Part shown: positions 1 through 32,787 of the stretch, one piece after another
How positions within the stretch are numbered: position 1 is the first letter of the stretch
How the letters are laid out: each line of letters starts with the position of its first letter
NCBI GenBank assembly: GCA_039917955.1
Contig: JBDSIN010000143.1
Coordinates: 1-35,589, forward strand
Reading direction: 5' to 3'
DNA length: 35,589 nucleotides
Origin: Candidatus Limnocylindria bacterium
GTDB taxonomy: Bacteria > Chloroflexota > Limnocylindria > QHBO01
Notes under the pieces: generated by a model
The model's input: the letters and a program-made list of their open reading frames with translations, nothing else
Databases searched by the model: none
Told to the model about the DNA's origin: nothing
Translations under genes and position numbers: made by a program

Positions 1-507
1 GAGCTGTGGCGGGCCGAGGCGCGCCAGCTGCCGCTGCGAACGGAGCCCGTGCAACTCGGAGAGGTGGTTGAGGAAGCAATCGCACGCTTCATGCCGAGCG
101 CGACGGAGCATGGCGTGCGGCTCGAGAGTGCTGTCGCGCCCGGCGCGGTCGCGTTGGCCGATCGGGACCGCGTTGTGCAGATCCTCGGCAACTTCATTTC
201 CAACGCTCTGCGTCACTCGCCGCAGGGCTCAAGTGTCCTCATCGGAGCCAGCCGGACCGGTTCCCTCGTCGAGCTCTCGGTGCGGGACGCAGGGCCAGGA
301 CTCAGCGCCGAGCAGCTCGGGCAGGTCTTTGAGCGCTTCTACCGTCTCGACGCTGCGCGATCCCGCGGCGAGGGGGGAGCCGGCATCGGTCTCGCCATCG
401 TGCGGGCGCTGGCCGAGGCGATGGGGGGCCGCGCCTGGGCCGAGAGTCATGGGAGCGGCGACGGCTCGACCTTCAGAGTGTCTCTGCCCGCAGCAGCGAG
501 CCCGTAG
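1..507 (+). CDS. Sensor histidine kinase, C-terminal fragment (5' end outside window)
   Basis: Frame 1 is open from nt 1. HATPase_c boxes are present (ILGNFISNALRHSP, RDAGPGL, GGAGIGLAIVRALAEAMGG). TAG at 505-507. Confidence 0.85.
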   Translation, partial: ELWRAEARQLPLRTEPVQLGEVVEEAIARFMPSATEHGVRLESAVAPGAVALADRDRVVQILGNFISNALRHSPQGSSVLIGASRTGSLVELSVRDAGPGLSAEQLGQVFERFYRLDAARSRGEGGAGIGLAIVRALAEAMGGRAWAESHGSGDGSTFRVSLPAAASP

Positions 508-896: not shown

Positions 897-1102
897 GCAA
901 CAGAATCGTCGCGGGCGTCGCGGGCGTGGCCCTTGCGTTGGGCATCGTCGTGGGCGCGGCGGGCGCGATCGTGGTCCAGGACCGAACGACGCCGGGCACG
1001 GCCATCATGAACGGGATGCCGGCAGGCATGGGCGGCTCGATGATGGGCGGCTCGATGATGGGCGCTGGCATGCACGGCCAGTACCGCGGGAGCGATCGAT
1101 GA
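893..1102 (+). CDS. Small membrane protein with Met/Gly-rich tail (putative Cu(I)-binding tract)
   Basis: GTG at 893 lies 6 nt after AGGAGG. One TM helix, then MNGMPAGMGGSMMGGSMMGAGMHG. ATGA overlap with the next gene. Confidence 0.55.
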   Translation: MSNRIVAGVAGVALALGIVVGAAGAIVVQDRTTPGTAIMNGMPAGMGGSMMGGSMMGAGMHGQYRGSDR

Positions 1103-1572
1103 GCCGTCGGCGCGACACAGGCCGGCCGCAGCGGCACCGCGAGGAGCCGATCAGCGAGCAGCCGCCGCTCTGGCGCTACGGGCTGGCCGCGGTGGTGGTT
1201 GCAGGCGTGCTCGGTATCGGCGTCTACTTCGGCTTCAGCGACTTCTTCGGCAGACCGGATGCGGCAACTGCAGCTGTCATGCCGGTGCGCATGAGCATGG
1301 CCGGCTTCGAACCGCAGGTTATCACCGGCAAGGTCGGCGAGGCGTTGGAGGTTGAACTGTGGACCACCGATGCCGCCGTGCATCTCCAGGGCGGAGTGCA
1401 CACCCTCATCAGCGATGAACTGCGGGTCTACGTAGAGTTGCCGGCTGAGTCACGGCGCACGGTGACGCTGCAGATGCCCGCCACGCCTGGCGAGTACGAC
1501 ATCTATTGCGACACCTGCTGCGGCGGTAAGGAGAGCCCGACGATGCACGGCACCCTGCTGGTTGAGGCGTAG
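1099..1572 (+). CDS. Membrane-anchored cupredoxin-like (Cupredoxin_1/EfeO-N-like) protein with C-terminal YCDTCCGGKESPTMHG motif
   Basis: ATG at 1099 (ATGA coupling). TM helix LAAVVVAGVLGIGVYFGF. Beta-sandwich pattern MAGFEPQVITGKVGEALEVEL...PGEYDIYCDTCCGG...MHGTLLVEA. Paralog at 11753-12244. Confidence 0.75.
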   Translation: MSRRRDTGRPQRHREEPISEQPPLWRYGLAAVVVAGVLGIGVYFGFSDFFGRPDAATAAVMPVRMSMAGFEPQVITGKVGEALEVELWTTDAAVHLQGGVHTLISDELRVYVELPAESRRTVTLQMPATPGEYDIYCDTCCGGKESPTMHGTLLVEA

Positions 1573-1573
1573 G

Positions 1574-2449
1574 ATGGCGCTGCCCGTCGACGGCCCGGCC
1601 GGGGCTCCCCCGAGTCCGGGCGTGTCCCGCCTTGCCTGGATCGATCTGCCACCGCCTGCGCTCGCGCTTGCCGGTGCACTGGGGCTCGTGGCCGTGATCG
1701 CAAGCGCCGTCATCGTCGCGTCGCCCTTCGAGGCCGCCGCCTTCGGGGGCCTGACCGTCCCGACGGTCCTGGGGGCGGGCGTGCTCGATGGGCTCAACCC
1801 GTGTGCCTTCGCCCTGCTCGTCCTGTTCGCCACGTACACGCTGACCCTGGTCAACGCCGTGACCGCGTCCGGCGATCCGACCGCGCTGGCCCGCAGACGT
1901 CTGCTGGGCGCCGGTTCGCTGTATGTCGGGGCCGTCTGGATCACCTACTTCCTCGTCGGCCTCGGGCTGTTCACCTTCCTGGCCTGGCTCGGTGAGGATC
2001 ACCTGGTCACCCGTGTCGCCGCGGTGCTGGCCCTGCTGATGGGTCTGTGGATGGTCAAGGACGTCCTGTTCCCGCGGTTCGGTCCGGCTCTGGCGGCTCC
2101 TCAGGCCACCCATGGCTGGATGCACAGGGCCATGGAGCGCGGCGGGCTTGGCGGGATGTTGCTGGCCGGCGTCCTGGTGGGCCTATGCACCGTGCCCTGC
2201 TCGGGGGCGATCTACCTGGCCATCGTGGCGGTTCTGCATGCCTCCGGCGGAGGTGCCACCGGCTTGGCGCTGCTGGCGCTTTACAACCTGGCCTACATCG
2301 TCCCGCTGGTGGTCCTGCTGGCTGTGGTCAGCAATCGCCGGGTACTGGGCCGGATGGGCCGGTGGAACCGGGCCAACTCACCGTGGGTCAGGGTGGGTCT
2401 GGCCGCCGCAGTCATCGTCATGAGCCTCGGCCTGCTGATCACGCTGTAG
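1574..2449 (+). CDS. CcdA/DsbD-family (DsbD_2) transmembrane thiol:disulfide or metal transporter
   Basis: Polytopic protein with the two hallmark Cys motifs, LDGLNPCAF and LCTVPCSGAIYL. ATG lies 2 nt after the upstream stop. Paralog at 12241-13113. Confidence 0.8.
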   Translation: MALPVDGPAGAPPSPGVSRLAWIDLPPPALALAGALGLVAVIASAVIVASPFEAAAFGGLTVPTVLGAGVLDGLNPCAFALLVLFATYTLTLVNAVTASGDPTALARRRLLGAGSLYVGAVWITYFLVGLGLFTFLAWLGEDHLVTRVAAVLALLMGLWMVKDVLFPRFGPALAAPQATHGWMHRAMERGGLGGMLLAGVLVGLCTVPCSGAIYLAIVAVLHASGGGATGLALLALYNLAYIVPLVVLLAVVSNRRVLGRMGRWNRANSPWVRVGLAAAVIVMSLGLLITL

Positions 2450-2697: not shown

Positions 2698-3378
2698 ATG
2701 AGTGAGGCCGCGCGCATCCTGGTCATCGACGACGATCCCAAGATCAGGGCGGTCGTGCGCCGCGGCCTGGCCTACGAGGGCTATCGCGTGGTCGAGGCGG
2801 GCAGCGGGGAGGAGGGGCTCGAGAAGGCCCGCGAGCATCTACCGGACCTGGTCGTCCTCGACATCATGCTGCCGGGCATGGACGGGTTGGAGGTCACGCG
2901 CCGACTGCGCTCTGCCGGTGACCAGGTCGCGATCCTGATGCTGACGGCGCGCGACCAGGTGACCGACCGGGTCGAGGGCTTGGAGACCGGCGCCGACGAC
3001 TACCTCGTCAAGCCGTTCAGCTTCGAGGAGCTTCTGGCCCGTGTCCATGCCCTGCTGCGGCGGCGAACCAGCCCCGCCGGCGAGACCCTGCGCTTCGCCG
3101 ACCTTGAGCTGGACGTCGACGCGCGCGAGGCACGCCGTGGCGCCCGCGTCGTCGAGTTGACCACCACCGAGTTCAACCTGCTCCTGCTGCTTCTGCGCCA
3201 CCCGCGCAAGGTGCTGACCCGCGACATCATCATGGAGCACGTATGGGCGTACGACTTCGACGGCGAGTCGAACGTACTGGAGGTATATGTTCGCTACCTG
3301 CGCAACAAGCTGGAAGCGAATGGCGAGTCCCGCCTGATCCAGACCGTCCGCGGGGCTGGCTACGTCCTCAAGGAGTGA
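2698..3378 (+). CDS. OmpR/PhoB-family response regulator
   Basis: Receiver domain (ILVIDDD...[13 protein letters not shown]...KPF) plus winged-helix output domain ([22 protein letters not shown]...VRGAGYVL). Confidence 0.95.
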
Positions 3379-4784
3379 TGCTCCTCCAGCGTCGGCGGCC
3401 AATCCGGACCCGGCTTGCGTTGATCTATGCCGGACTCCTTGCCGGCGCGCTCCTCGTCTTCGGCATTGGTGTCTTCGTCGTGCTGCGTGACGAGCTCGAG
3501 CGCTCGTTCGACGCCGCCCTGTTCGCGAATACGGAGCACGCCGCCGGCGCCTTCGCCCAGGATATCGACGCCGAGGGCCGCCTGAGCCCATCCGAGCGTC
3601 TCATCGAGCAGTTTGCCTCGACAGGCGGCCGCGTGCTGGTCCTTGATCTGGACGGCGGTGTGCTGGCCGATTCGGCGCCATCAGACTCCGGCAGGCTGCC
3701 ATTCACGCCCGACGACCTGGCCAGCGCCGACCACCACGCGCACGCGGTGCGCGAGCTCGCTGTCGACGATGACATCGTCCGGCTCTCCGTTGAGCCCGTG
3801 ATGCTCCCGAACGGGCAGGTCATCGGCTACGTGGCCTGGGCCGACTCGACGAGACCCTTGCGCGACCTGCTAGCGACTGTCGGCGGCGCGCTCGTAGTGG
3901 CCGGCCTGCTGGTGACCAGCCTGGCCATGATTGGCGGGCTCGCCCTCGCACGCCGCGCCCTGGCGCCGGTCGCCGACGTAACCGAGACGGCACGGGCGAT
4001 CTCGCTGTCGGGCGATTTCGCGGCTCGGGTCGACGCGGGCTCGCCGACAGACGAGGTTGGCGAGCTGGCAATTGCCTTCAACGAGATGCTCTCGGCGCTC
4101 GAGCAGAATCATCAGGCTCTGCAGCGCTTCCTCGGGGACGCGTCACACCAGTTGCGCACGCCGCTCACCACGATCCGAGCCAATTTGGACCTCGCGCAGC
4201 GGTCCGGGCTGCCGACGGAAGAGCGCCTCGCCATCCTCGCCGATGCCCGCGACGAGGCGGAACGGATGGGTCGCCTCGTCGGCGACCTTCTCTCGTTGGC
4301 CCGCGCTGAGTCCGGTGTACGGATCCGGGTTGAAGCGGTGGAACTCGACGCACTGCTGGTGGAGTCCGTCCGTCGACAGCGCGAGGCAGCCCCGCATGTG
4401 CGCATGAGCGTGGCCGCCGTTGAGCCTGCCATCGTCGACGGCGATCGCGACCGGCTGCACGAGCTGATCGGGATTCTTCTCGACAACGCGGCGCGCTACA
4501 CGCCGGCGGGAGGCAGCGTCGCGGTCAGACTCGCGGTGCGGGACGGGCGCGCGATCGTCCGGGTGGAAGACAGCGGCATCGGTCTCGACGAGCAGGACCG
4601 CGAGAGGGCCTTCGAGCGGTTGTACCGCGGATCGCGTGCTCGCGACCTGCGTCCGGGTGGCACGGGTCTGGGCCTGGCGATCGCACGCTGGATCGTTGAG
4701 TCACATGCCGGCACGATCGAGCTCACCGATCGCGAGGGCGGCGGAACGGTGGCGATCGTGACGCTGCCGATGCGTGCGTTGTGA
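3378..4784 (+). CDS. Sensor histidine kinase (2 TM, about 140-aa extracytoplasmic loop, HAMP, HisKA, HATPase_c)
   Basis: TGATG overlap with the regulator gene. H-box SHQLRTPLT, N-box LLDNAARYTP, G-boxes DSGIGL and GGTGLGLAI. The sensor loop contains DHHAHAV. Confidence 0.9.
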   Translation: MLLQRRRPIRTRLALIYAGLLAGALLVFGIGVFVVLRDELERSFDAALFANTEHAAGAFAQDIDAEGRLSPSERLIEQFASTGGRVLVLDLDGGVLADSAPSDSGRLPFTPDDLASADHHAHAVRELAVDDDIVRLSVEPVMLPNGQVIGYVAWADSTRPLRDLLATVGGALVVAGLLVTSLAMIGGLALARRALAPVADVTETARAISLSGDFAARVDAGSPTDEVGELAIAFNEMLSALEQNHQALQRFLGDASHQLRTPLTTIRANLDLAQRSGLPTEERLAILADARDEAERMGRLVGDLLSLARAESGVRIRVEAVELDALLVESVRRQREAAPHVRMSVAAVEPAIVDGDRDRLHELIGILLDNAARYTPAGGSVAVRLAVRDGRAIVRVEDSGIGLDEQDRERAFERLYRGSRARDLRPGGTGLGLAIARWIVESHAGTIELTDREGGGTVAIVTLPMRAL

Positions 4785-4847
4785 CCGCGACCCGTGTCCT
4801 GGTCGCCGACGACGAGGCGGCCACCGCAGTCGCGGCGTCAGCAATGT

Positions 4848-4874
4848 CTCAGGGAGCGCTCAGATCAGACTCAG
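4848..4874 (+). promoter_or_regulatory. Phased CTCAG box (site S2), upstream of the HMA-like/ABC operon
   Basis: CTCAGggagcgCTCAGatcagaCTCAG, three perfect pentamers at 4848/4859/4870. The ATG at 4897 is 27 nt from the third repeat start. Confidence 0.5.
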
Positions 4875-4896
4875 CCTCCGATATGACCCTGCTGGA

Positions 4897-5130
4897 ATGA
4901 ACGCCGGAAGCGCAGTCAGGATCCCCGTCCACGGCCTCGGTTGCGGTGGCGGCGGCGCGACGACGATCGAGCGCGAGCTGGCCCGTGCGGCCGGCGTTTT
5001 GCGGTCGTACGTCAACCCGGCCACCGAGACGGCGTACATCGAATACGACCCCGTCCAGACCGACGCCGGGCGCCTGGCGCAGGTTATCGAGCACGCGGGC
5101 TACCGACCCGGACCCGCGTCGGAGGCGTGA
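4897..5130 (+). CDS. HMA-fold (heavy-metal-associated-like) protein with degenerate metal loop
   Basis: Ferredoxin-like HMA pattern VRIPVHGLGCGGGGATTIERELARAAGVLRSYVNPATETAYIEYDP...VIEHAGY. The usual GMTCxxC loop is replaced by GLGCGGGG, leaving a single Cys. Confidence 0.7.
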   Translation: MNAGSAVRIPVHGLGCGGGGATTIERELARAAGVLRSYVNPATETAYIEYDPVQTDAGRLAQVIEHAGYRPGPASEA

Positions 5131-5133
5131 GCG

Positions 5134-6231
5134 GTGCTTCTGGCCCGCCGCAACCTGCTCCACGACCGAACCCGGTTCGCGCTGAGTGTCCTGGGTGTCG
5201 CCGTCTCGATCGGGCTCATCCTGCTGCTCTCCGGCTATCGTTCGGGCGTCTATCAACAGTCCTCCGCGTACCTCGACAATACGCCCGGCAGTGTGGTGGT
5301 GGCCGAGCGCGGAATCCGCGACTTTCTTGGGACGGCCTCAGTCCTGCCGCCGGGCGCGGAGCAGACCGCCCGCGAGCGCCCCGGTGTCGACGGCGTGATC
5401 CCGGTGGTGTCGCAGTTCGTCATCTTCGAGCGCCACGGCCGCAAGGACGGCTTCTTCCTGATCGGTTACGACCCCGCGGCGGGTGGCGGCCCGTGGCGAC
5501 TGGTCGACGGGCGCGAACCGGCCGCTGACGACGAGCTGGTCATCGACCGCACGACGGCCGCCCAGCACGAGATCGCCATCGGAGATCAGGTCCGGGTGCT
5601 GGACCGCGACGCGACCGTGGTCGGCCTATCGGATGAGACGACCTTCTGGGCCGGCTCGGTCGCCTTCGCCCGGATCACCACGCTCGAGTCGTTGCTGCGC
5701 GCTCCGGGCCTGCGCAGCTTCCTGCTTGTGAGCCCGGCCGCCGGGGTGAGCCCGGAAGCGCTCCGCGACCAGCTCGCCCTGCCGGGAACGGAGGTGCTCC
5801 TGAAGAGCGAGATCATCGCCAACGACCGGCAGTTGATGGCGCGGGTGTACGACGCGCCGATCGGGTTGATGGTTGGCATCGCCTTCCTCGTGGGAGTGCT
5901 GGTGGTGGGGCTCGTCATCTATACCGCCACCATCGAGCGACGGCGGGAGTACGGGGCGGTCAAGGCCATCGGCGCCAGCAACCGGACACTGTACCGGGTG
6001 GTGACCACGCAGGCGCTTATCGCGACGGTCGCCGGAGCGGTAGTCGGGGTAGGGCTGGCCTACGGCGGCGGTGCCGCGCTGATGACCTGGCGGCCGCAGT
6101 TCCTGGTGGCCATCGAGCCGGCCGCCGTCGGCGTCGTCCTGGGCAGCAGCCTGCTGATGGCGCTGCTGGCCGCCCTGATCCCGGCCCGGGCGATGGCCCG
6201 CCTGGAGCCGGCCGAGGTCTTCCGGGGATGA
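5134..6231 (+). CDS. FtsX/MacB-type ABC permease (half-transporter 1)
   Basis: N-terminal ARRNLLHDRTRFALSVLGVAVS helix, a large extracytoplasmic loop and a C-terminal FtsX bundle (ERRREYGAVKAIGASNRTLY). GTG lies 8 nt after GGAGG. Confidence 0.85.
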   Translation: MLLARRNLLHDRTRFALSVLGVAVSIGLILLLSGYRSGVYQQSSAYLDNTPGSVVVAERGIRDFLGTASVLPPGAEQTARERPGVDGVIPVVSQFVIFERHGRKDGFFLIGYDPAAGGGPWRLVDGREPAADDELVIDRTTAAQHEIAIGDQVRVLDRDATVVGLSDETTFWAGSVAFARITTLESLLRAPGLRSFLLVSPAAGVSPEALRDQLALPGTEVLLKSEIIANDRQLMARVYDAPIGLMVGIAFLVGVLVVGLVIYTATIERRREYGAVKAIGASNRTLYRVVTTQALIATVAGAVVGVGLAYGGGAALMTWRPQFLVAIEPAAVGVVLGSSLLMALLAALIPARAMARLEPAEVFRG

Positions 6232-7358
6232 GCGCAGCGTGGGTCCTGGCCCGTCGCAACCTGGCCGGCAACCGGGTCCGGCTGCTGGTCTCGGTCGGTA
6301 GCGTCGCCCTCGCCCTGTCGCTGACGATCGCGTTCGACGCGATCTTCGCCGGGGTCGCGAACCAGCTGACGAAATATGTCGATCGGGCCGGCGCGGACGT
6401 GTGGGTCGCCCAGGCCGGCGTGCGCAACCTCCACATGGTGGCCTCCTGGCTGCCCGCCTCGGTGACCGGTGCCGTCAATGCCGTCGACGGCGTGGCCGAA
6501 GTGACCCCCATCCTGTACTCGACCGATACCATCGCCGCCGGCAACGATCGAGCGGTCGCGTACGTCATCGGGCTGCCGGCCGACGCGGCCATGGGCATGC
6601 CGTGGAACGTCGTCGACGGAGCGGACCGACCAGGCCCCGGCGAGGTGATCGTCGACCGCGGCTTCGCCAGCAAGGCCGGCGTCTCCATCGGCGATGACGT
6701 CACCGTCCTCGGCGGCGAGGCGCGGGTGGTCGGCCTGTCGAGCGGAACGGCCAGCCTGGTGAACTCGGTGGCCTTCGTCTCGTTCGAGGACTTTCAGACC
6801 ATGCGCGGCGGCGCCCCGGTCGTGAGCTTCGTCCTGGTCAGGGTCGTTTCCGGCGCCTCGCCGCAGGAAGTCGCCGCCGAGATCGAGCGCGTGGTCCCGG
6901 GTGTGACCGCCCAGTCGCGCGCCGCCTTCGCGGTCGAGGAGCGGCGATTGGTGATGGACATGAGCGCCGACGTCATCGCCATCGTGAACGCCGTGGGCTT
7001 CGCCGTCGGGCTGGCCGTGGTGGCGCTGACCGTCTACGTCGCCACGCTCGCCCGCCGGCGTGAGTACGGTGCCCTCAAGGCGCTCGGCGCGCACAATCGC
7101 TTCCTGTACGGGGTGGTGCTGAGCCAGGCCGTCCTGAGCGTCGCGCTCGGCTTCGTCGTGGGCCTCGCCTTCACCGAACTGATCAGCCTGGCGATTGCAG
7201 GGACCGATCTCAATCTCGAACTTGCCATCAGTGCCCCGTCGCTCGCCAAGGTCGGACTGTTCGCGGCGGTCATCGCCGGTCTCGCCGCGATCCTGCCCAT
7301 CCGCCAGATAGCGAGTCTCGACCCGGCGGTCGTCTTCCGAAAAGGAGCCGCACTGTGA
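6228..7358 (+). CDS. FtsX/MacB-type ABC permease (half-transporter 2)
   Basis: ARRNLAGNRVRLLVSVGSVAL helix and RRREYGALKALGAHNRFLY motif. ATGA overlap upstream and GTGA overlap downstream. Confidence 0.85.
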   Translation: MSAAWVLARRNLAGNRVRLLVSVGSVALALSLTIAFDAIFAGVANQLTKYVDRAGADVWVAQAGVRNLHMVASWLPASVTGAVNAVDGVAEVTPILYSTDTIAAGNDRAVAYVIGLPADAAMGMPWNVVDGADRPGPGEVIVDRGFASKAGVSIGDDVTVLGGEARVVGLSSGTASLVNSVAFVSFEDFQTMRGGAPVVSFVLVRVVSGASPQEVAAEIERVVPGVTAQSRAAFAVEERRLVMDMSADVIAIVNAVGFAVGLAVVALTVYVATLARRREYGALKALGAHNRFLYGVVLSQAVLSVALGFVVGLAFTELISLAIAGTDLNLELAISAPSLAKVGLFAAVIAGLAAILPIRQIASLDPAVVFRKGAAL

Positions 7359-8251
7359 CAACTCTGACGCTCGACGTGCGCGACGTCACCAAGCGCTTCG
7401 GTGACGGCGAGACCGCGGTGACCGCCGTTCGTGGGGTCACCCTCGCCGTCGACCCGGGCGAGGTCGTCCTGATCATGGGTCCATCGGGCTCGGGCAAGAC
7501 GACACTGCTGTCGATGATGGGCGCTCTCCTGCGGCCGACATCCGGCTCGATCCACCTCGACGGGACCGAGATCAGCGCCCTCTCCGAGGCTCGCCTGCCC
7601 GCTATCCGGCTGCGTCAGTTCGGGTTCATCTTCCAGGACTTCAACCTGCTGTCGGCCCTGTCGGTCCGTGAGAACGTGGCACTCGTCGCCGAGCTGGCGG
7701 GCCTCAGCGGACGTGCGGCGCGGGACAAGGCAAGCGCGCTGCTTACCGAGCTGGGCCTCGGCGAGCGGCTCGACTTCCTGCCGGAGAAGCTGTCGGGTGG
7801 AGAGAAGCAGCGGGTGGCGATCGCCCGGGCGCTGATCAACGATCCGACGCTCATCCTGGCCGACGAGCCAACCGCCAACCTCGACTCAAAGATCGGGCAC
7901 GAGATCATGCGCCTGCTGCGGCGCATTGCCAAGGACCAGGGACGCAGCGTGGTCATCGTCAGCCACGACCAGCGCATCCGTGACATCGCCGACCGCGTGC
8001 TGTGGCTCGAGGATGGCGCCTTCAAGGACATGGTGACGATGGCCACCGACCCGGTGTGCGGCATGGCGGTCGAGCGCGAGCGGGTGGTCAGCGGGAGTCG
8101 GGACGGGGAGACCTACTTCTTCTGCTCGAACGGCTGTCGGGCCGAATTCCTCGCCGCCGATGGGCAGGGGCCGCGGAACTGGATCCGGGCGGCGTCCGCG
8201 CTCATCTCACGACACACCACTCCAACCGGTGGTCGCCGCGGTCGCGACTGA
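7355..8251 (+). CDS. ABC transporter ATP-binding protein (MacB/LolD-like) fused to a C-terminal YHS/TRASH metal-binding domain
   Basis: Walker A GPSGSGKTT, signature LSGGEKQRVAIARAL, Walker B LILADEPT. The C-terminal DPVCGMAVE...YFFCSNGCRAEF (about nt 8045-8155) matches the YHS pattern. Confidence 0.9.
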   Translation: MTTLTLDVRDVTKRFGDGETAVTAVRGVTLAVDPGEVVLIMGPSGSGKTTLLSMMGALLRPTSGSIHLDGTEISALSEARLPAIRLRQFGFIFQDFNLLSALSVRENVALVAELAGLSGRAARDKASALLTELGLGERLDFLPEKLSGGEKQRVAIARALINDPTLILADEPTANLDSKIGHEIMRLLRRIAKDQGRSVVIVSHDQRIRDIADRVLWLEDGAFKDMVTMATDPVCGMAVERERVVSGSRDGETYFFCSNGCRAEFLAADGQGPRNWIRAASALISRHTTPTGGRRGRD

Positions 8252-8443: not shown

Positions 8444-8650
8444 ATGACACGAACCCTCCGACTCGCGCTGGCGACGGTCGCCCTCGTGGGCCTGCTCGTC
8501 GGGGCCAGCCCGGTTGCCGCCGCGGAAGACGGGGCCGCCTACGGCGCCCACGTCGCCCACCACGCGACGACCGAAGGCGGCTTCAGTGGCGCCTGCAACC
8601 CGGGCATGCACCGCGGTTTCTCCGACAGGGCGGTCTGTCCGGGCCACTGA
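8444..8650 (+). CDS. Small secreted His/Cys-containing protein (hypothetical)
   Basis: GAGGTGG SD element ends 3 nt before the ATG (3-nt spacer). Signal peptide LALATVALVGLLVGASPVAAA. The roughly 42-aa mature part, EDGAAYGAHVAHHATTEGGFSGACNPGMHRGFSDRAVCPGH, has 5 His and 2 Cys. Confidence 0.55.
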   Translation: MTRTLRLALATVALVGLLVGASPVAAAEDGAAYGAHVAHHATTEGGFSGACNPGMHRGFSDRAVCPGH

Positions 8651-8669
8651 GGCGACCTGCGGTGAGACG

Positions 8670-9311
8670 ATGATGACCTTCGGGAGTGGATCCTTCGGGG
8701 ACTGGATCATGATCCTTGTGCCCATCGCGCTCGTCGTCGGGGTCGTTCTGATCGCGCTCTGGGCGGTCCGGCTCCTGGGCGGGGGTGCCGAGGACGACGC
8801 GCTCCGTCAGCTCCGGGCCAGGTTCGCGCGGGGCGAGATCGAGGCGCCGCAGTTCGAAGAGATGCGACGGGCCCTCGAGGCGACGGACGGACCGCGAACG
8901 GGTCGAAGCGCCCTCGGCATCGTCGGACTCGTCCTCGTCGTGGGGGCCATCCTCCTCGGCACCGCCGCCGGCTGGGGTGGGACGACCGGGCCGGGCTGGG
9001 GCGGGATGATGGGACCCGGCGGGATGATGGGCTGGGGACCCGCCCCCACCGCCCCGGCGGGGACCTCCGTGCGCATGGCCGGGTCGCGGTTCGAGCCGGC
9101 GACGCTGACCATCGCCCCGGGCGCGACCGTACGCTGGTTCAACGACGACGCCCTGCCGCACACCGTCACCGCCTCCGACGGCTCGTGGGACTCGGGCAAC
9201 CTCTCGCCCGGAGGCTCCTACGAGCGTCGCTTCGACTCACCGGGCACGTACGCGTATCTCTGCCGCTACCACCCGGGCCAGGCCGGCTCGATCGAGGTTC
9301 GGGCGCCCTGA
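8670..9311 (+). CDS. TM-SHOCT-TM-Met/Gly-rich-cupredoxin fusion protein (type-1 copper site with putative axial Gln)
   Basis: SHOCT motif LRARFARGEIEAPQFEEMRRAL, Met/Gly tract GWGGMMGPGGMMGWG, and plastocyanin/amicyanin-like ligands PHTV...YLCRYHPGQ. Confidence 0.8.
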   Translation: MMTFGSGSFGDWIMILVPIALVVGVVLIALWAVRLLGGGAEDDALRQLRARFARGEIEAPQFEEMRRALEATDGPRTGRSALGIVGLVLVVGAILLGTAAGWGGTTGPGWGGMMGPGGMMGWGPAPTAPAGTSVRMAGSRFEPATLTIAPGATVRWFNDDALPHTVTASDGSWDSGNLSPGGSYERRFDSPGTYAYLCRYHPGQAGSIEVRAP

Positions 9312-9346
9312 CCAGGGGGCCGCGTTGAAGGGGCCAAACCCCACGC

Positions 9347-9373
9347 CTCACCTCGCTCCCACCTCGCTCTCAT
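9347..9373 (+). promoter_or_regulatory. Phased CTCA box (site S4), upstream of cytochrome b
   Basis: CTCACctcgctCCCACctcgctCTCAT, with repeat starts at 9347/9358/9369. The first two units form an 11-nt direct repeat. Confidence 0.4.
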
Positions 9374-9467
9374 CGGACGCTAAGGACGAGGGAGTCCGAT
9401 AACCGCGCACACGACAGCCCTTCGCCGAACACCCGACCGCAAAGGACGGCGGGGAAGGAGAACCTCC

Positions 9468-10556
9468 ATGGGTACCCACGGGGCCATCGGCCAGCGGCGA
9501 TCCTGGCATAGGGCATGGGAGGCGCTCGACGAGCGCCTCGGCCTCAGCGGGCTGGCCTATCCGGTGCCGGCCCACGCCAACGGCATCGGCTACATCCTGG
9601 GCGGTATCACCTTCTTCGGTTTCCTCATCCTGGCGGCGACCGGCATCTGGCTCTCCCAGTTCTACCACCCCACGCCGTCCTCGGCCCGCGAGAGCGTGGT
9701 CTACATCATGAACATGGCCCCGCTCGGCGACCTCGTCCGGGGCATCCACTTCTGGGTGGCCAATATCGTGATGGCCACCGTGCTGCTGCACATGGGCCGC
9801 GTCTTCGTGACGGGCTCCTACAAGCGGCCGCGCGAGGCGAACTGGCTCATTGGGCTCGGGCTGCTCGGGGTGACGCTGGGCCTGCTCTTCACTGGCACGG
9901 TCCTGAAATGGGACCAGGAGGCCTACGAGGCCCTCGCCCACAACGTCGAGATGGGCGACCTGCTCGGCGCCTTCGGCTTCTGGTTCTCGGCTGACTTCGC
10001 GGCCAGCCTGCCGATCCTGGGCAGGCTGTATATAGCCCACATCGCCATCCTGCCCGCGCTCGGGGTGCTGCTGCTGCTCGCCCATTTTCTCCTCGTCAAG
10101 CGCCACGGCATCTCGGCGCTGCCGGCGCAGGCTGACGCAGCGGTCGACGGCGGACCGATCCCGGCGAAGGGTGGATCGACGTTCACCGCCCACCTGGCGC
10201 GGATGGCGGGGTTCGGCCTGCTGATGCTCGCCGCGGCGACGATCGTGTCGCTCATCTGGCCGGCGGGCCTTGGACCGCGCCCCGTGCCGGGCGTTGAGGA
10301 GACGAAGCCGCCGTGGATGTTCCTGCCCTTCTATCCGCTCGAGGACTGGTTCGGGCTGATCGCCCTGTTCTGGGCCCCGGCGCTGCTGTTCGGCGGGCTG
10401 GCACTCGTGCCGTTCATCGACCGCAGCCCGTACCGCTCCCCCGCGCGGCGTCGAGTGTTCATCGCCATCGGCGCCATCGTGGCCATAGCGCTCACCGCGC
10501 TGGTGATGTACGCCCTGTTCACCGTGCCCCAGGCGCACATCCAGGAGGCGATGTGA
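9468..10556 (+). CDS. Cytochrome b (bc-complex type, fused N- and C-terminal domains)
   Basis: Two helix-embedded His pairs spaced about 14 residues apart (IHFWVANIVMATVLLHM and AHIAILPALGVLLLLAH). Conserved KWDQ and PPWMFLPFY motifs. GGAAGGAG SD element. Confidence 0.9.
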   Translation: MGTHGAIGQRRSWHRAWEALDERLGLSGLAYPVPAHANGIGYILGGITFFGFLILAATGIWLSQFYHPTPSSARESVVYIMNMAPLGDLVRGIHFWVANIVMATVLLHMGRVFVTGSYKRPREANWLIGLGLLGVTLGLLFTGTVLKWDQEAYEALAHNVEMGDLLGAFGFWFSADFAASLPILGRLYIAHIAILPALGVLLLLAHFLLVKRHGISALPAQADAAVDGGPIPAKGGSTFTAHLARMAGFGLLMLAAATIVSLIWPAGLGPRPVPGVEETKPPWMFLPFYPLEDWFGLIALFWAPALLFGGLALVPFIDRSPYRSPARRRVFIAIGAIVAIALTALVMYALFTVPQAHIQEAM

Positions 10557-10765
10557 TGGCCGCCGTGCTGTTCCGGCTCGCGTTGCTGGCGACCGGCCTG
10601 GGCGTGACGGAGATCGGTCTCGGCAACGCGCTGGCCGCAGGATCGCCGTGGGGCTGGGCGCTCGTCCTTTTCCTCGGGCTCCCGCTGATCGTCGCCGGCT
10701 CCGCGGGCTTCATGGTCACGCTTCTTGGCGGAAGCAAGCAGAAAGGCAGATCCACCGATGCGTAG
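10556..10765 (+). CDS. Small 2-TM membrane protein (hypothetical)
   Basis: TGATG coupling to the cytochrome b gene, with AGGAGG upstream. Hydrophobic sequence AAVLFRLALLATGLGV...WALVLFLGLPLIVAGSAGFMVTLLGG. Confidence 0.45.
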   Translation: MAAVLFRLALLATGLGVTEIGLGNALAAGSPWGWALVLFLGLPLIVAGSAGFMVTLLGGSKQKGRSTDA

Positions 10766-11282
10766 CTCCGTACCGTTTGGCATGGTGGCCGGGCTGTTGC
10801 TGGTGCTCGGCTCCGCCGCGACCGTGCTGGCCGACGGCAGCGGCGAGGAGGGGATCGGCGTCGAGCCGGCCAGCGTGACGGCTGGTGACACGGTCATCCT
10901 CGCCGGCAGCGGGCTGGAGCCCAACAACGAGCGGGTGATCGTCCTGGCCGGGCAGGATCTCGTCGTCGACTTTGGCACGGTCACCACCGACGCCGCGGGA
11001 ATGTTCCAGACCGAGCTGACCATTCCCAGCCACCTCCCATCCGGGGTCTACGAGTTCCGCGCCATCGGCGACGAGATCCTCACCGCGCCGCTGGCGGTCA
11101 CCGCCGCGGCTGGTGGGGCGGGGTCGTCACCGGTTCCAAACGACCTCAGCAACACCGTCGTGCCTCGCGAGCGAACGGCGATCGAGTTCGGCGTGGTCCT
11201 CGCCCTCGCCGCCGCCGCCGCCCTCGCGGGCGCATTCCTGGTCTGGCGCGCGGAGGGTCGGCGGAGCACGTCAGCCACGTGA
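10758..11282 (+). CDS. Secreted beta-sandwich (Ig-like) protein with C-terminal TM anchor (hypothetical)
   Basis: Signal peptide MRSSVPFGMVAGLLLVLGSAATVLA and C-terminal helix FGVVLALAAAAALAGAFLVW followed by RAEGRR. Overlaps the previous stop. Confidence 0.6.
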   Translation: MRSSVPFGMVAGLLLVLGSAATVLADGSGEEGIGVEPASVTAGDTVILAGSGLEPNNERVIVLAGQDLVVDFGTVTTDAAGMFQTELTIPSHLPSGVYEFRAIGDEILTAPLAVTAAAGGAGSSPVPNDLSNTVVPRERTAIEFGVVLALAAAAALAGAFLVWRAEGRRSTSAT

Positions 11283-11408: not shown

Positions 11409-11756
11409 ATGAGCATGTCAGCCGGTGATCGAGGGGGTGCTGTTCGGCACGCCCAGCGAGCAGCCGGCCAGGCCTCCGCCGTCGCCACCATGATCGCGGG
11501 CAGCCGGCCATTCGCCGACGTGGCGCAGCAGCTGCTCGCCGCACGTGGATCGCTCGACTCACTGCTCGTGCGCCTTGTCGAACTCGAACTTGAGGGTTGC
11601 GTCCCGAACCCCACGGCGCGCAGGGAGGTGCACGAATTGCTGCACTCCGCGAGGGGGCGGGCGGGACACAGCCGGCACGCGGCTCGCTCGCGGATCGGCC
11701 GGCCGCCGGAGGAGGCGGAACCGCCACGTGTCTTGGAAGGAAGGACATCTTCATGA
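11409..11756 (+). CDS. CsoR/RcnR-family (DUF156) transcriptional repressor, non-canonical ligand set
   Basis: Helical pattern AQRAAGQASAVATMIAGSRPFADVAQQLLAARGSLDSLLVRLVELELEGCV aligns by eye to the CsoR core. The first Cys is replaced by F and the His by E. Confidence 0.65.
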   Translation: MSMSAGDRGGAVRHAQRAAGQASAVATMIAGSRPFADVAQQLLAARGSLDSLLVRLVELELEGCVPNPTARREVHELLHSARGRAGHSRHAARSRIGRPPEEAEPPRVLEGRTSS

Positions 11757-12244
11757 CTCGTCGAGCTCAGACGGGACGCATCCAGCGGCATTCTCCAATG
11801 CCGGCTGACTCTCGATCGATGGCATCGGCCGTGCCGCGTTCGGTCCGGTTGGGCGCATTTGCGGCGCTGGCGCTGGTCGTGGGCGGTGTCGCCATCGCTC
11901 TCGTGGTGAGCCGCCTCCAGGGACCCGCCGCGACCGATACCACTGCCATCAGCGTTCGGGCAAGCATGGGTGGCTTCGATCCCTCGGCGCTCATCGTCAA
12001 GCCGGGTGAGACGGTTCGGATCGAGCTCACCAGCCTCGACACGGCGTTCCACAGCGACGGTGGCGGCTGGCATCAGTTTGCGATCGACGAGCTCGGCGTT
12101 GACTGGAAGGTCGGGCCGCAGACCAGCGAGGTCTTCGAGCTCATTGCCCCTACCGCGCCGGGGACCTATAGCTGGTACTGCGATATCTGCTGCGGCGGCA
12201 AGGAGAACCCGTCGATGCGCGGCACGCTGACCGTGGCGGCGTGA
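11753..12244 (+). CDS. Membrane-anchored cupredoxin-like protein with YCDICCGGKENPSMRG motif (paralog of 1099-1572)
   Basis: ATGA coupling to the CsoR-like gene. TM helix LGAFAALALVVGGVAIALVV. Shared blocks SMGGFDP, DEL, PGTYSWYCDICCGGKE, GTLTVAA. Confidence 0.75.
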   Translation: MTRRAQTGRIQRHSPMPADSRSMASAVPRSVRLGAFAALALVVGGVAIALVVSRLQGPAATDTTAISVRASMGGFDPSALIVKPGETVRIELTSLDTAFHSDGGGWHQFAIDELGVDWKVGPQTSEVFELIAPTAPGTYSWYCDICCGGKENPSMRGTLTVAA

Positions 12245-13113
12245 TGGGCGCCGCGACCGGGCAGCCGCGCGCTCGCCCGCGGCTGCTTATCCTCGTCGTC
12301 GGTGCGGTTGTGGCCGCCGCCGCCGCCGCTGTCCTGGTCCCGGGACCGGCGCCCGCGGGCCACGAGGCCCTGGCCGACCTGAGCCTGCCGGCCATCATCG
12401 GCGCCGGGGTGCTCGATGGCTTCAACCCCTGCGCCTTCGGGGTCCTCATCCTGTTTGCGACCTTTGCGCTGGGGCTGGCGGCACGCCAGTCGCTCGCCGC
12501 CGGCGCTGGTGCTCCCGGCGCTGGTGCTCCAGACGTACGGGGGGCTAGCCGCACCGTGCTCGGACTGGGGTCATTCTTCGTCCTCGGCGTGCTGGCCACC
12601 TACTTCCTGCTCGGCCTGGGCCTCCTGACCGTGCTCTCCTCGCTGACCGACTTCGGTGGCAACCATCTGCCGAGCCGAGTTGCGGCCCTCGTCGCGGTCG
12701 GGCTCGGGCTGTGGATGCTTCGCGACGTGCTCCTGCCCGATGCGCGCTGGAAGCTGGAGGCTCCCCACGCGCTCCACGGCCGCATGCGCGACTGGGCGCG
12801 GTCGAGCTCACCGGTGGCGCTCTTCGGCGGCGGCGTCCTGATCGGACTCTGCACGGTCCCGTGCAGCGGGGCGGTCTACCTCGGCGTGGTGGCGCTCCTG
12901 GGAGTCAGCGGCACGTTCTCGGCGGGCCTCGGCGGCCTCGCCCTCTACAACCTGGCCTACATCACGCCGCTGGTCGGCCTGCTGGTGCTGGCCAGCCGAC
13001 CGGGCCTGATCCGGGTCATCAATCGCTGGCACCTGGAGCACGCGGAGGGCACCAGGCTGCTCCTGGCGATCGTGGTCCTCGCGCTCGGGTTCGCGATTCT
13101 ACTGACGGTATAG
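12241..13113 (+). CDS. CcdA/DsbD-family transmembrane protein (paralog of 1574-2449)
   Basis: GTGATG overlap with the upstream stop. Motifs LDGFNPCAF and LCTVPCSGAVYL. Confidence 0.8.
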   Translation: MMGAATGQPRARPRLLILVVGAVVAAAAAAVLVPGPAPAGHEALADLSLPAIIGAGVLDGFNPCAFGVLILFATFALGLAARQSLAAGAGAPGAGAPDVRGASRTVLGLGSFFVLGVLATYFLLGLGLLTVLSSLTDFGGNHLPSRVAALVAVGLGLWMLRDVLLPDARWKLEAPHALHGRMRDWARSSSPVALFGGGVLIGLCTVPCSGAVYLGVVALLGVSGTFSAGLGGLALYNLAYITPLVGLLVLASRPGLIRVINRWHLEHAEGTRLLLAIVVLALGFAILLTV

Positions 13114-13168: not shown

Positions 13169-13190
13169 GTTGAGCCGCTGGAATTGCGGC

Positions 13191-13382
13191 ATGCCGGACC
13201 TGCTCGCCACCGTCCTCATCGTCGTCGCCATCCTGCTCGTTGCCGACCTGCTTCTCGCGGGCGGCGCGATGACGATGACGGGCGTGTCGGCCATGATGGG
13301 CGCCTTCGGCCATCCGCTCGCGGCCGCCGCGCTCGTTGTTCTGGTCGTGGCGCTCATCCTGGTACTCGGGAGTCCGGGGTAG
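13191..13382 (+). CDS. Small 2-TM membrane protein (hypothetical)
   Basis: MPDLLATVLIVVAILLVADLLLAGG...AAAALVVLVVALILVLG. High GC at third codon positions. The stop lies 2 nt before the next ATG. Confidence 0.45.
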   Translation: MPDLLATVLIVVAILLVADLLLAGGAMTMTGVSAMMGAFGHPLAAAALVVLVVALILVLGSPG

Positions 13383-13384
13383 CC

Positions 13385-13915
13385 ATGCTTGAGCACGCGG
13401 TCCGGGCACGGCTCGACCCCGATGGTCTGCACCAGGTCGTGGAGGTCGCGGTTCGCGGTGGCTACCGACCCAGCACCATCCTGGCGCGCGCCGGGGTGCC
13501 CCTGCGCATCGTCTTCCGGCGCAACGATGACGACGTCTGCTCGGAGCGCGTCATCTTTTCAAAGCCGCGCGTCGATCGCCACCTGGCGCCGTCCGGTGCC
13601 ACTGCCGTCGAGCTGCCCGCGCAGCCGCCCGGCGAGATCCGCTTCACCTGCGGCATGGGCCGCTACCGCGGCCGCATCGCCGTCGTCGACGAGAGTCGGA
13701 CATCGCTGGCGGGCCGGCTGCACGAGCAGGTATCGCGGCTCGAGGCCGCACTCGGCACCAGGATCGTCCTGTTGCTCTGTTCGCTCCCGCTGATTGCCGT
13801 GCTCACGCTCGTGTTCATCGATGCGAAGGCGGCCATCGCCTTCGCCGCCGCCGCGCTGGCCGCCTGGGTAGCCGGCTGTCTCTGGGCACTCCGCGCCTCT
13901 GCGCCGTCGAGGTAG
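13385..13915 (+). CDS. Cupredoxin_1-domain protein with C-terminal TM anchors
   Basis: GGYRPSTILARAGVPLRIVFRRNDDDVCSERVIF...IRFTCGMGRYRGRIAVV parallels 17304-17687. No N-terminal signal peptide. Two C-terminal hydrophobic helices. Confidence 0.7.
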   Translation: MLEHAVRARLDPDGLHQVVEVAVRGGYRPSTILARAGVPLRIVFRRNDDDVCSERVIFSKPRVDRHLAPSGATAVELPAQPPGEIRFTCGMGRYRGRIAVVDESRTSLAGRLHEQVSRLEAALGTRIVLLLCSLPLIAVLTLVFIDAKAAIAFAAAALAAWVAGCLWALRASAPSR

Positions 13916-13923
13916 GGGAGAGC

Positions 13924-14745
13924 GTGCCGTTCGTCATCGACATCGACCCGATCGCCTTCTCGGTGCTCGGCCTTCACGTGCGGTGGTACGGGATCATCGT
14001 CGCCGGCGCGGCCGCGGTCGCAGTGTGGTTGACCATGCGTGAGGCGCGTCGCCGCGGCATCGGTTCGGAAACGGTCTCAGATGCCGCGATTTGGGCGGCG
14101 GTGGCAGCGCTCGTCGGTGGGCGAGCGCTGTACGTTGCCCAGAACGAGCTCGGCACGCTGGGCGAGGATCCAGCGCACCTGTTCATGGTCTGGAACGGCG
14201 GTCTCTCCTTCTACGGCGGGTTGCTCGGCGCCCTGCTCGCCCTGCTCGTCTTCGCCCGGCGGAGCGGAATCGCCCTTCTGCCACTGCTGGACGTGGCCGC
14301 GCCGGCCGCGGCGATCGGCCAGGCCATCGGGCACATCGGCTGCCTGATCGGCGGCGACTCGTATGGGATCCCCACCGACCTGCCCTGGGCGGTCGTCTAT
14401 CGAAACGTGGATGCCATGGCGCCGGTTGGCGTGCCGCTGCACCCCACGCAGGCGTACGAGGCGGTCCTGCTGGCCGCACTGTTCGCCGGGCTCTGGCTCG
14501 GCCGCGAGCGCCTGGCGCGGATCGGGGAGGGGGCGGTCGCCGCCACCTACCTTGTCGGCCTGGCCGGCATCCGCTTCGGGCTCTTCTATCTGCGCGACGA
14601 GCCCAGCGTGCTCCTGGGGCTCAAGACCGCCCAGCTGATGGGACTCGGGATTGCGCTCCTGGCGATCGTCCTCTTCGTCGCCGCGCGCCGGCAGACGCGC
14701 TCCACTCCCATCGCCCATGCACAGCTGGAGGCCATTCGACCATGA
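13924..14745 (+). CDS. lgt: Prolipoprotein diacylglyceryl transferase
   Basis: RWYGIIVA, WNGGLSFYGGLLGALLA, GHIGCLIGGDSYG and HPTQAYEA. GTG start after GGGGAG. Confidence 0.9.
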   Translation: MPFVIDIDPIAFSVLGLHVRWYGIIVAGAAAVAVWLTMREARRRGIGSETVSDAAIWAAVAALVGGRALYVAQNELGTLGEDPAHLFMVWNGGLSFYGGLLGALLALLVFARRSGIALLPLLDVAAPAAAIGQAIGHIGCLIGGDSYGIPTDLPWAVVYRNVDAMAPVGVPLHPTQAYEAVLLAALFAGLWLGRERLARIGEGAVAATYLVGLAGIRFGLFYLRDEPSVLLGLKTAQLMGLGIALLAIVLFVAARRQTRSTPIAHAQLEAIRP

Positions 14746-30428: not shown

Positions 30429-30600
30429 GAAACCCCGATGCGCTGTGCTTCGAGCGTGGACCGCCGACCGAAATGCGTCGAGGTATCCGCTGTCTTGAAG
30501 ACCCCACGATGCACTTGATAAGCGTGCCAGATCGCGACCAACCGTCCGTTTGACTCACGGCCTGCAACATGCAGCCCGTGCCGGGTGTCAAGCAGGTGAG

Positions 30601-32600: not shown

Positions 32601-32787
32601 GACCGCCCGCAACTGACGTTACCGGCGTAGTGGCCGCGGGTTACCACGGGTCAGTCGGGATCGCCGTTGCCGTGGTTCAGATGACAGCTCGGATGGTCGC
32701 TGAACCTTGACCGACGGCCCACACTACGCTGTGTTCGGGGCATGGCGGAGATTGGCCCCAGACCGGGCATTCGAGTCTGGAGGGACC

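Follow-up and report, generated by a model that had tools for sequence, protein, structure and literature searches.

What does a DsbD-like membrane protein do when its constant neighbor is a cupredoxin? The question is raised by a 35.6 kb stretch of Limnocylindria DNA of about 69% G+C (the window, by which we mean the whole of that stretch), in which a gene for a small membrane-anchored cupredoxin with three clustered cysteines is followed directly by a gene for a membrane protein of the DsbD superfamily, and in which this two-gene module occurs twice (copies 1 and 2, Table 1). Pfam scans of the main open reading frames (ORFs) show that the window is a copper-homeostasis island. An earlier reading of the letters alone, which we call the sequence-only reading, had singled out the module and proposed that the cupredoxin is the client of the membrane protein. 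That the module is real, widespread and uncharacterized is well supported by the analyses below; its chemistry we infer. The parts are recognizable; what is new is an obligate pairing with a client that is not a thioredoxin, a Cys3-His2-Met ligand set, and a third cysteine in the membrane protein. Our literature search found no description of a cupredoxin paired with a DsbD/CcdA-like protein.

Two abutting copies of one gene pair

Both pairs lie where the sequence-only reading had placed them, and each cupredoxin carries the cysteine motif (YCDTCCGGKESPTMHG in copy 1, YCDICCGGKENPSMRG in copy 2) as well as an upstream histidine-bearing segment (AVHLQGGVH and AFHSDGGGWH, respectively). The two cupredoxins share 41% identity and the two membrane proteins 46%. 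In copy 1 the TAG stop codon of the cupredoxin gene (1570-1572) is separated by a single base from the ATG at 1574; in copy 2 stop and start overlap as GTGATG (12241-12246). Stop and start codons that abut or overlap in this way are the usual signature of translational coupling, and fit the coupling that had been proposed. The relatives closest to the window are metagenome-assembled genomes of the class Limnocylindria, the nearest being locus L001 (Chloroflexota, Limnocylindria), with 95% protein identity to the window; a 96%-identical homolog of the copy 1 cupredoxin has the same length.

A cupredoxin with a CuA-type loop and three cysteines

A homolog search of 5.8 billion proteins with the cupredoxin returned 2199 matches, and C-x-x-C-C-G-G-[KR]-x-x-P-x-M is kept in all 120 of the 120 closest homologs among the matches listed. 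In a library clustered at 50% identity the motif is found in about 75 of the 150 best cluster representatives. Past these, the matches are type 1 copper proteins (C..PGH..AGM) and CuA-like proteins (for example C-T-V-E-C-G-G-N-H-E-Y-M), and because the motif gives way to such loops beyond about 75 clusters, the boundary of the cupredoxin family is sharp. The core motif of the family reads [YFW]-C-x-x-C-C-G-G-[KR]-x-x-P-x-M-x-G. The cysteine core of the motif as first written is correct, whereas the glutamate after the lysine (E, D, A or Q) and the histidine or arginine after the methionine vary, and the lysine itself can be arginine. Across 48 representatives (copy 1 numbering) H101, C137, C140, C141, G143 and M149 are invariant, and M67, G142, P147 and G151 are at least 94% conserved. 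Two upstream histidines had been described as conserved; this is true of H101, but H95 is kept in only 85% of the representatives.

The domain assignment made from the sequence is upheld. Cupredoxin_1 (PF13473) scores 33.9 bits on copy 1 and 42.8 bits on copy 2, both above the gathering cutoff of 27. The AlphaFold2 (AF2) model of copy 1 has nine strands and a mean predicted local distance difference test score (pLDDT) of 81, with 86-97 in the blocks of the domain. Its best Foldseek matches are the B. anthracis Cupredoxin_1 structures 4hcf, 4hcg and 4hci, the Thermus CuA domain 2cua, CupA (4f2e) and NosZ, and the probability is 1.00 for 4hcf/4hcg, 2cua, 4f2e and NosZ. As modeled, the tri-Cys protein is a cupredoxin fold, a Greek-key beta-sandwich.

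The sequence-only reading had set the motif in the position of a blue-copper C..H..M loop, and here the fold stands while the loop has to be reassigned. The best PDB sequence matches of the cupredoxin are the CuA domains of NosZ (1.8e-5). In this alignment the two bridging cysteines of CuA correspond to C137 and C141, its methionine to M149 and its first histidine to H101; nothing in the family corresponds to its second histidine, and an extra cysteine, C140, is present. With the CuA ligands aligned, one histidine lost, one cysteine gained and the loop longer by one residue, the loop (C-x3-C...M) is of CuA type and not a blue-copper loop, and on this alignment the cupredoxin domain is a descendant of a CuA-type domain.

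Known sites were compared with the family and set aside. A type 1 blue copper site (H...C-x(n)-H-x(n)-M) was rejected because the loop after the cysteine holds no histidine. A canonical CuA site was rejected because the ligand pattern differs: no histidine lies between the cysteine pair and the methionine, as the set H...C-x3-C-x3-H-x2-M demands. Scores of the cupredoxins against the COX2 and NosZ families of NCBIfam are far under the family cutoffs, and copy 2 gives weak NCBIfam matches to the CuA domains of NosZ and CoxB. The CupA-type site (Cys + C-x-M-x-M) is likewise absent, the fold being similar (4f2e) and the motif different. In a plasmid collection the cupredoxin query matched only NosZ CuA domains.

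Copy 1 begins with a positively charged, arginine-rich N-terminus, followed by a single transmembrane (TM) helix at residues ~24-50 and by the cupredoxin domain from residue ~60 to 157. An arginine-rich N-terminus before a single TM helix predicts an outward-facing cupredoxin domain, and some members carry an N-terminal HMA domain without a signal peptide, which places the N-terminus inside the cell. The protein would therefore be single-pass, N-in/C-out, with an extracytoplasmic domain. Export by the twin-arginine (Tat) pathway, for which an N-terminal RR might be read, was rejected: the RR precedes the hydrophobic segment by more than 20 residues, and the Bacillaceae homologs lack it.

The HMA-like domain, cytoplasmic by this topology, marks a clade of its own (P0268, P0280, P0281, P0306, P0330 and P0343, also P0275 and P0287, and the gene at 4001-4939 of locus L087). 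It often has a degenerate CxxC and is followed by a conserved H-x-C-C motif that precedes the TM helix. Directly upstream of the pair in Anaerolineae loci there is a separate HMA gene (for example L060, 7606-7911).

A membrane partner with the catalytic cysteines of DsbD

The membrane proteins of the window give no Pfam match at an expect value (E) below 1, and their match to DsbD in NCBIfam is weak (0.018) and below every family threshold. With no Pfam match for either copy, the assignment to DsbD required profile methods. Among 23 diverse relatives, DsbD_TM (PF02683) matches 10 (best 1.1e-7), DsbD_2 (PF13386) matches 4 (best 2.1e-11) and SfLAP matches 8; LysE matches also occur among the relatives. 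Alignment of the family profile with E. coli DsbD by hhalign gives a probability of 92.7% (E 4e-7, 179 columns), with N-P-C77 on the T-P-C of DsbD and C205-T-V-P-C209 on its C-S-P-C. In DsbD, T-P-C holds the redox cysteine of TM1, and C-S-P-C that of TM4 together with a nearby non-essential cysteine. C77, C205 and C209 are invariant in the 23 diverse members, and C77 and C209 each follow a proline; D72, N75, D163, Y237 and N238 are also invariant in the membrane family. The predicted layout, from a low-confidence AF2 model, is an N-terminal signal-anchor and about six TM helices.

Judged by its profile, the membrane protein is a member of the DsbD superfamily that keeps the catalytic cysteines, without being a member at family level; the CcdA/DsbD identity first proposed holds at the former level and fails at the latter. 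The homolog in Niallia is named 'cytochrome c biogenesis CcdA family protein' in RefSeq. This name, like 'cytochrome c oxidase subunit 2' and 'plastocyanin', is probably misleading for these families.

An assignment to the ArsG-type permeases (NF040495) was also rejected. The best score, from a relative in the Candidate Phyla Radiation (CPR), is 30 bits against a cutoff of 200, and no full-length member comes near it; four members of our alignment A5 match ArsG at up to 1.8e-14. The plasmid collection held no homolog of the membrane protein. The Anaerolineae membrane subfamily has a conserved, predicted outer loop before TM1, W-H-P-N-A-P-x3-M-Q-M-Y-L-P (A5 columns ~45-65; for example L060, 8389-9252), which is rich in histidine and methionine and could bind Cu(I). 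The two window copies have no such loop.

The pair is inherited as a unit

To define the linkage, one genome per species was scanned for 185,579 species. Relatives were found in 252 stretches, and the best 80 loci were analyzed; 77 of these are informative, the contigs of the remaining three ending just past the cupredoxin gene. In all 77 of these the cupredoxin gene is followed directly, on the same strand, by the membrane gene. Both the conservation of CxxCC in homologs and its linkage to a CcdA/DsbD-like gene, on which the proposal of a client relationship had leaned, are thus confirmed. The pair was found in Chloroflexota of the classes Limnocylindria and Anaerolineae, in four Bacillaceae (Niallia, Paraliobacillus, Bacillus canaveralius) and in one metagenome-derived Deferrimicrobiaceae (Desulfobacterota) genome; Paenibacillus has it too. 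The proteins of the Niallia pair are WP_394237595 and WP_394237593.

The two partners have diversified together. The cupredoxins fall into three subfamilies, matched one-to-one by three subfamilies of the membrane protein, and the pairwise identities of the cupredoxins correlate with those of their membrane partners (r = 0.91). The two pairs of the window come from different subfamilies, and the same is seen in loci L021, L026 and L035. One-to-one subfamilies, together with genomes that hold two of them, indicate that the pair was duplicated and inherited as a unit.

Copper genes surround the pair. A P-type ATPase of copper type lies within 5 kb in 34 of the 77 loci, a CupA-like cupredoxin in 24, and the prolipoprotein diacylglyceryl transferase Lgt in 24, including those of Niallia (L045) and Anaerolinea (L060). 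An OmpR-type response regulator neighbors the pair in 28 of the 77 and a histidine kinase in 26; a cluster of SHOCT neighbors comprises 19 loci.

Partners of the membrane family without a thioredoxin fold

Thioredoxin-fold partners were sought among ORFs of 80-330 aa that contain CxxC and lie within 4 kb of the pair. The 77 loci hold 159 such ORFs, of which the longest 150 were scanned. They include 12 HMA proteins, 9 YHS proteins and 1 CsoR-type repressor; about 5 of the 150 have a thioredoxin or glutaredoxin fold (three AhpC/Redoxin/Thioredoxin_8, one glutaredoxin-like and one Thioredoxin_2). No thioredoxin-fold gene was detected by Pfam among the window genes scanned, in agreement with the earlier statement that neither module contains one. 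Taken together, these two results indicate that the module does not include a thioredoxin partner.

Distant relatives of the membrane protein, which keep the D-x-x-[NH]-P-C and Y-N signatures, are informative about what takes its place. In CPR bacteria (Zambryskibacteria and Portnoybacteria; L082-L084, 3483-4780; L089/L090, 2361-3783) the product of the gene directly upstream is always a DUF1573 protein, a membrane-anchored beta-sandwich that bears a C-M-C (C-x-C) motif, and in one CPR lineage this pair lies inside a csoR-copA operon. Judged by gene order, the non-thioredoxin partners of the membrane family are of at least two kinds. In L087 a DUF1573-like gene (3408-3983, +) precedes a pair of HMA-cupredoxin and DsbD-like genes. 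Its single in-frame TGA (3735-3737) aligns with the first cysteine of the CPR C-M-C motif, giving U-T-C; the product is 31% identical to its CPR homologs (E 2e-14), and the homology runs past the TGA. This TGA is a candidate selenocysteine codon, and UxC is apparently found once. A 7-base-pair hairpin lies 17 nt downstream of the TGA, in a region that folds no better than shuffled sequence (z = -0.22).

Other relatives are fused to a more familiar partner. P0436 consists of a signal peptide and a thioredoxin-like CxxC domain joined to the same membrane core; the domain matches PDB 8t4c (1.2e-4) and StoA (3erw, 0.005), with G-C-S-A-C on the active sites of thioredoxin oxidoreductases, and StoA is a known CcdA client. 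P0442 appears to be a fusion of the same kind with weaker support. The third cysteine, C205, is absent in both fused forms and present in all cupredoxin- and DUF1573-linked members seen, and may, from these two fused forms, be an adaptation to non-thioredoxin clients. The DUF1573, UxC and thioredoxin-fused relatives together indicate that this branch moves reducing equivalents to extracytoplasmic Cys/Sec motifs, with the cupredoxin in the position of the client. A client relationship between the DsbD-like protein and the cupredoxin is strongly implied by these comparisons, and the pairing with DUF1573 CxC/UxC proteins suggests that there is a wider set of non-thioredoxin-like DsbD clients.

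A proposed transmembrane reductant relay and its alternatives

We propose that the module is a dedicated envelope thiol-copper system of single-membrane (monoderm) bacteria. One N-terminal helix would anchor the cupredoxin in the cytoplasmic membrane, with its domain on the outer side. The CuA-derived site would keep His101, Cys137, Cys141 and Met149 and, with the second histidine lost, would have gained Cys140 and His95. The resulting Cys3-His(2)-Met site would suit Cu(I), possibly as two ions bridged by thiolates, and thiols exposed on the outside in this way would be readily oxidized, particularly in the presence of copper. The DsbD/CcdA-type protein would draw electrons from the cytoplasm, the donor presumably being thioredoxin, by way of Cys77 and Cys209 with Cys205 in addition, and would pass them directly to the cysteine loop of the cupredoxin, with no thioredoxin-fold intermediary, so that the thiol state is kept or restored. 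The reduced site could then capture or redox-cycle copper beside the copper-efflux ATPase.

That the pair is a dedicated transmembrane relay of reductant to an extracytoplasmic Cys3 copper site is, on the comparisons available, a reading to which we give about an even chance. A more specific version, in which the DsbD-superfamily protein and the surface Cys3-His2-Met site form a reductant-driven machine for copper redox or capture, acting as a cupric reductase or, together with CopA, as a Cu(I)-thiolate trap that can be regenerated, we offer tentatively and would not bet on. The cysteine-bearing cupredoxin CupA is reported to reduce Cu2+ (PMC5646241).

Several points weigh against the relay. 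To our knowledge, all characterized DsbD/CcdA clients are thioredoxin-fold proteins, and direct reduction of a cupredoxin is without precedent; a thioredoxin encoded elsewhere in the genome could intervene. The membrane proteins of the window reach no threshold in Pfam or NCBIfam, the profile of their family has no sequence match in the PDB even at E<=10, and their AF2 model is poor (pLDDT 64), which made the structure search uninformative (Foldseek gave noise, E>0.9). Only two thioredoxin-fused relatives were seen, and their identity to the family member from Niallia that served as query is low (about 28%). Finally, the third cysteine, the residues D72, N75, D163 and N238, the HMA/HxCC extensions and the distant likeness to ArsG fit metal translocation equally well.

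This last point leads to the strongest alternative, a relay of Cu(I) or another thiophilic metal. The three membrane cysteines would form a trigonal thiolate transport site and the cupredoxin would be an extracytoplasmic metallochaperone that exchanges ligands with it, much like MerP with MerT or CopC with CopD, the cytoplasmic HMA/HxCC portion serving as inner donor or acceptor in some members. Much in the family is congenial to such a role. Each partner has three invariant cysteines, and the polar invariants of the membrane protein (D72, N75, D163 and Y237-N238) are lacking in E. coli DsbD. Some cupredoxins carry the cytoplasmic HMA domain and H-x-C-C at their N-terminus, and others have a separate HMA gene directly upstream. 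The histidine- and methionine-rich loop of the Anaerolineae subfamily lies on the predicted outer side before TM1, and the LysE/DsbD superfamily includes metal transporters, with the organoarsenical permease family ArsG a distant relative within it. Nevertheless, in the alignment the membrane cysteines fall on the redox positions of DsbD and even on its nearby non-essential cysteine, and relatives with the same signatures are fused to a secreted thioredoxin-like CxxC domain. The candidate selenocysteine in the CxC motif of a partner, typical of redox sites, likewise points to redox chemistry rather than transport. About half of the loci already encode an ATP-driven copper exporter beside the pair, and the ArsG matches stop at 30 bits where 200 are called for. 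We regard metal transport by the pair as unlikely, though it is the alternative that we take most seriously.

Alternatively, the cupredoxin could be a respiratory or other electron-transfer protein with a variant CuA-like (purple, mixed-valence) center. The DsbD-like protein would then serve only in its maturation, maintaining the cysteines in the thiol form ahead of copper insertion, in the manner of TlpA with CoxB. The CuA-type ancestry and the ligand alignment would sit well with this, as would names like 'cytochrome c oxidase subunit 2' in JGI annotation. Cytochrome b and plastocyanin-like genes precede copy 2, cytochrome b recurs beside subfamily-3 pairs in 9 loci, and in L060 two small membrane proteins are encoded directly upstream of the pair; among the neighboring ORFs scanned there, one matches the Pfam model Sdh_cyt, the cytochrome b of succinate dehydrogenase. 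Yet the second CuA histidine is absent and nothing conserved replaces it in the loop, no catalytic oxidase or reductase subunit is consistently adjacent to the pair in the loci analyzed, and genes for copper efflux, sensing and chaperones dominate the neighborhood. In Paenibacillus (L086) the pair has no redox-enzyme neighbors at all, and in the CPR relatives the partner of the membrane protein, within a csoR-copA operon, is a CxC protein that is not a cupredoxin. A variant CuA center with a dedicated maturation factor is, in our judgment, improbable. That the membrane protein is an ordinary cytochrome c biogenesis CcdA which merely happens to neighbor an unrelated cupredoxin, as the NCBI and JGI names of homologs would have it, is scarcely credible given the adjacency in 77 of 77 loci, the one-to-one co-diversification across three phyla, the two copies within one copper island, sequences below the DsbD_TM threshold, and a set of frequent neighbors that includes no ResA/CcsX-type or other cytochrome c maturation gene.

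Comparison with known systems

Redox systems that tie DsbD-type proteins to copper tolerance include DsbD/DsbC, ScsB/ScsC/CueP and CcdA/Etrx (PMC4546943, PMC7785015). In S. pneumoniae CcdA reduces Etrx, which in turn reduces Msr, and in C. diphtheriae a CcdA-like protein has been proposed to act on CueP through DsbA (PMC4546943).

The window proteins share with the reductant transporters CcdA and the beta domain of DsbD, among them those of the ScsB-ScsC and CcdA-Etrx/ResA/StoA systems, a homologous core of about six TM helices, with proline-preceded cysteines in TM1 and TM4 on the redox cysteines of DsbD, and some of their relatives have a fused secreted thioredoxin-like domain. They differ from these proteins in a third invariant cysteine, four residues before that of TM4, in the D-G-x-N-P-C and Y-N signatures, which DsbD lacks, and in their obligate neighbor, which is a cupredoxin and not a thioredoxin-fold protein. 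A further tie of DsbD to copper tolerance is that in E. coli dsbD adjoins cutA.

The cupredoxin resembles the CuA domains of NosZ and COX II in its fold and in four matched ligand positions. Unlike them, it lacks the second histidine, has a loop one residue longer with the extra C140 and H95, and is a stand-alone membrane-anchored protein outside any oxidase or reductase. It resembles CupA of S. pneumoniae (4f2e) and the B. anthracis Cupredoxin_1 proteins (4hcf/4hcg/4hci) in being a small membrane-anchored domain of copper-efflux operons with what would be a cysteine-based Cu(I) site; the copy 1 model scores a TM-score of 0.74-0.86 against these structures (normalized to the target). CupA, with its Cys + C-x-M-x-M, faces the cytoplasm and feeds CopA, whereas the family described here has C-x-x-C-C...M and two histidines, is predicted to face outward, and always comes with a DsbD-like partner.

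CopC-CopD and MerP-MerT likewise combine, in metal-resistance operons, a small extracytoplasmic metal-binding protein with a membrane protein encoded beside it. The membrane partner here is instead homologous to DsbD, and we found no sequence relationship of it to CopD or MerT. CopG is a periplasmic copper-resistance protein with a thioredoxin-like fold, a CxCC motif and a Cu4 cluster, for which interconversion of Cu(I) and Cu(II) has been proposed. It is similar in having a cluster of adjacent cysteines and a methionine in an envelope protein of copper resistance; the fold here is that of a cupredoxin and the motif is C-x-x-C-C, and we know of no report of CopG with a DsbD-like partner.

If the relay exists as proposed, the cupredoxins would add a new class to the clients of DsbD and would contain a new type of biological copper center. 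A strict pairing with a cupredoxin, or with DUF1573 CxC proteins in relatives, would widen the known client range of DsbD/CcdA, and a Cys3-His2-Met site on a CuA scaffold, an undescribed ligand set, would be of bioinorganic interest. Monoderm bacteria are without the periplasmic DsbC/DsbG system, and the module would show how they protect or use surface thiols under copper stress. The family comprises more than 2000 sequences and reaches 252 species-level genomes; its occurrence in Bacillaceae and Paenibacillus that can be cultivated opens the hypothesis to direct genetic tests.

Neighboring genes of the copper island

The island holds two two-component systems, two P-type ATPases, two Lgt paralogs and several further cupredoxins, with kelch/glyoxal-oxidase-like proteins farther to the right (all by Pfam; Table 1).

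Table 1. Genes and sequence features of the window (positions count from its first nucleotide)
Feature	Position	Strand	Length	Assignment and remarks
Histidine kinase, C-terminus	1-507			Pfam; upstream of copy 1
Tri-Cys cupredoxin, copy 1	1099-1572	+	157 aa	Pfam Cupredoxin_1 3.3e-8; subfamily 'CDTCC..SPTMHG'
Candidate upstream ligand H95, copy 1	1381-1383	+
Candidate upstream ligand H101, copy 1	1399-1401	+
Cysteine motif, copy 1	1504-1551	+		Y136-C137-D-T-C140-C141-G-G-K-E-S-P-T-M149-H-G; YCDTCCGGKESPTMHG
DsbD-superfamily membrane protein, copy 1	1574-2449	+	291 aa	Profile alignment to E. coli DsbD
OmpR-type response regulator	2698-3378	+		Pfam; downstream neighbor of copy 1
HAMP/HisKA histidine kinase (ORF)	3243-4784	+		Pfam
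Two MacB/FtsX-type permeases, then ABC ATPase	5134-8251			ATPase with C-terminal YHS (metal-binding) domain
SHOCT / Met-Gly-rich / plastocyanin-like protein	8514-9311			Upstream of copy 2
Cytochrome b	9468-10556			Upstream of copy 2
Ig-like protein	10725-11282			Signal peptide and C-terminal anchor; upstream of copy 2
Tri-Cys cupredoxin, copy 2	11753-12244	+	163 aa	Pfam Cupredoxin_1 5.9e-11; subfamily 'CDICC..NPSMxG'
Cysteine motif, copy 2	12176-12223	+		YCDICCGGKENPSMRG
DsbD-superfamily membrane protein, copy 2	12241-13113	+	290 aa	46% identity to copy 1; same three cysteines
CupA-like Cupredoxin_1 protein	13382-13915	+		Pfam Cupredoxin_1 6.3e-12; C...C-G-M motifs; C-terminal TM helix
Lgt paralog (prolipoprotein diacylglyceryl transferase)	13924-14745	+		Pfam LGT 3.8e-56
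P-type ATPase (heavy-metal/copper-type)	15085-17307	+		Pfam E1-E2_ATPase + Hydrolase
Second Lgt paralog	18464-19696			N-terminal extension of ~190 aa
Extracytoplasmic function (ECF)-type sigma factor, then two kelch / glyoxal-oxidase-like proteins	30550-33702			Copper radical oxidase-like

Relatives of the YHS-bearing ATPase downstream of copy 1 occur in 16 related loci. Upstream of copy 2, the cytochrome b, Ig-like and plastocyanin-like proteins (8514-11282) may form a second transmembrane electron route to a cupredoxin; cytochrome b is found again in 9 loci and the Ig-like protein in 12, and almost all of these loci carry subfamily-3 (copy-2 type) pairs. The CupA-like gene downstream of copy 2 probably starts at an internal methionine of the ORF 13184-13915, and a cupredoxin of this second type is also present in L045 (11462-11866), with C...C-x-M motifs. 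The recurrence of Lgt may relate to interference by copper with the cysteine modification of lipoproteins. A galactose-oxidase-like gene adjoins the pair in L060 as well (9349-11175, -).

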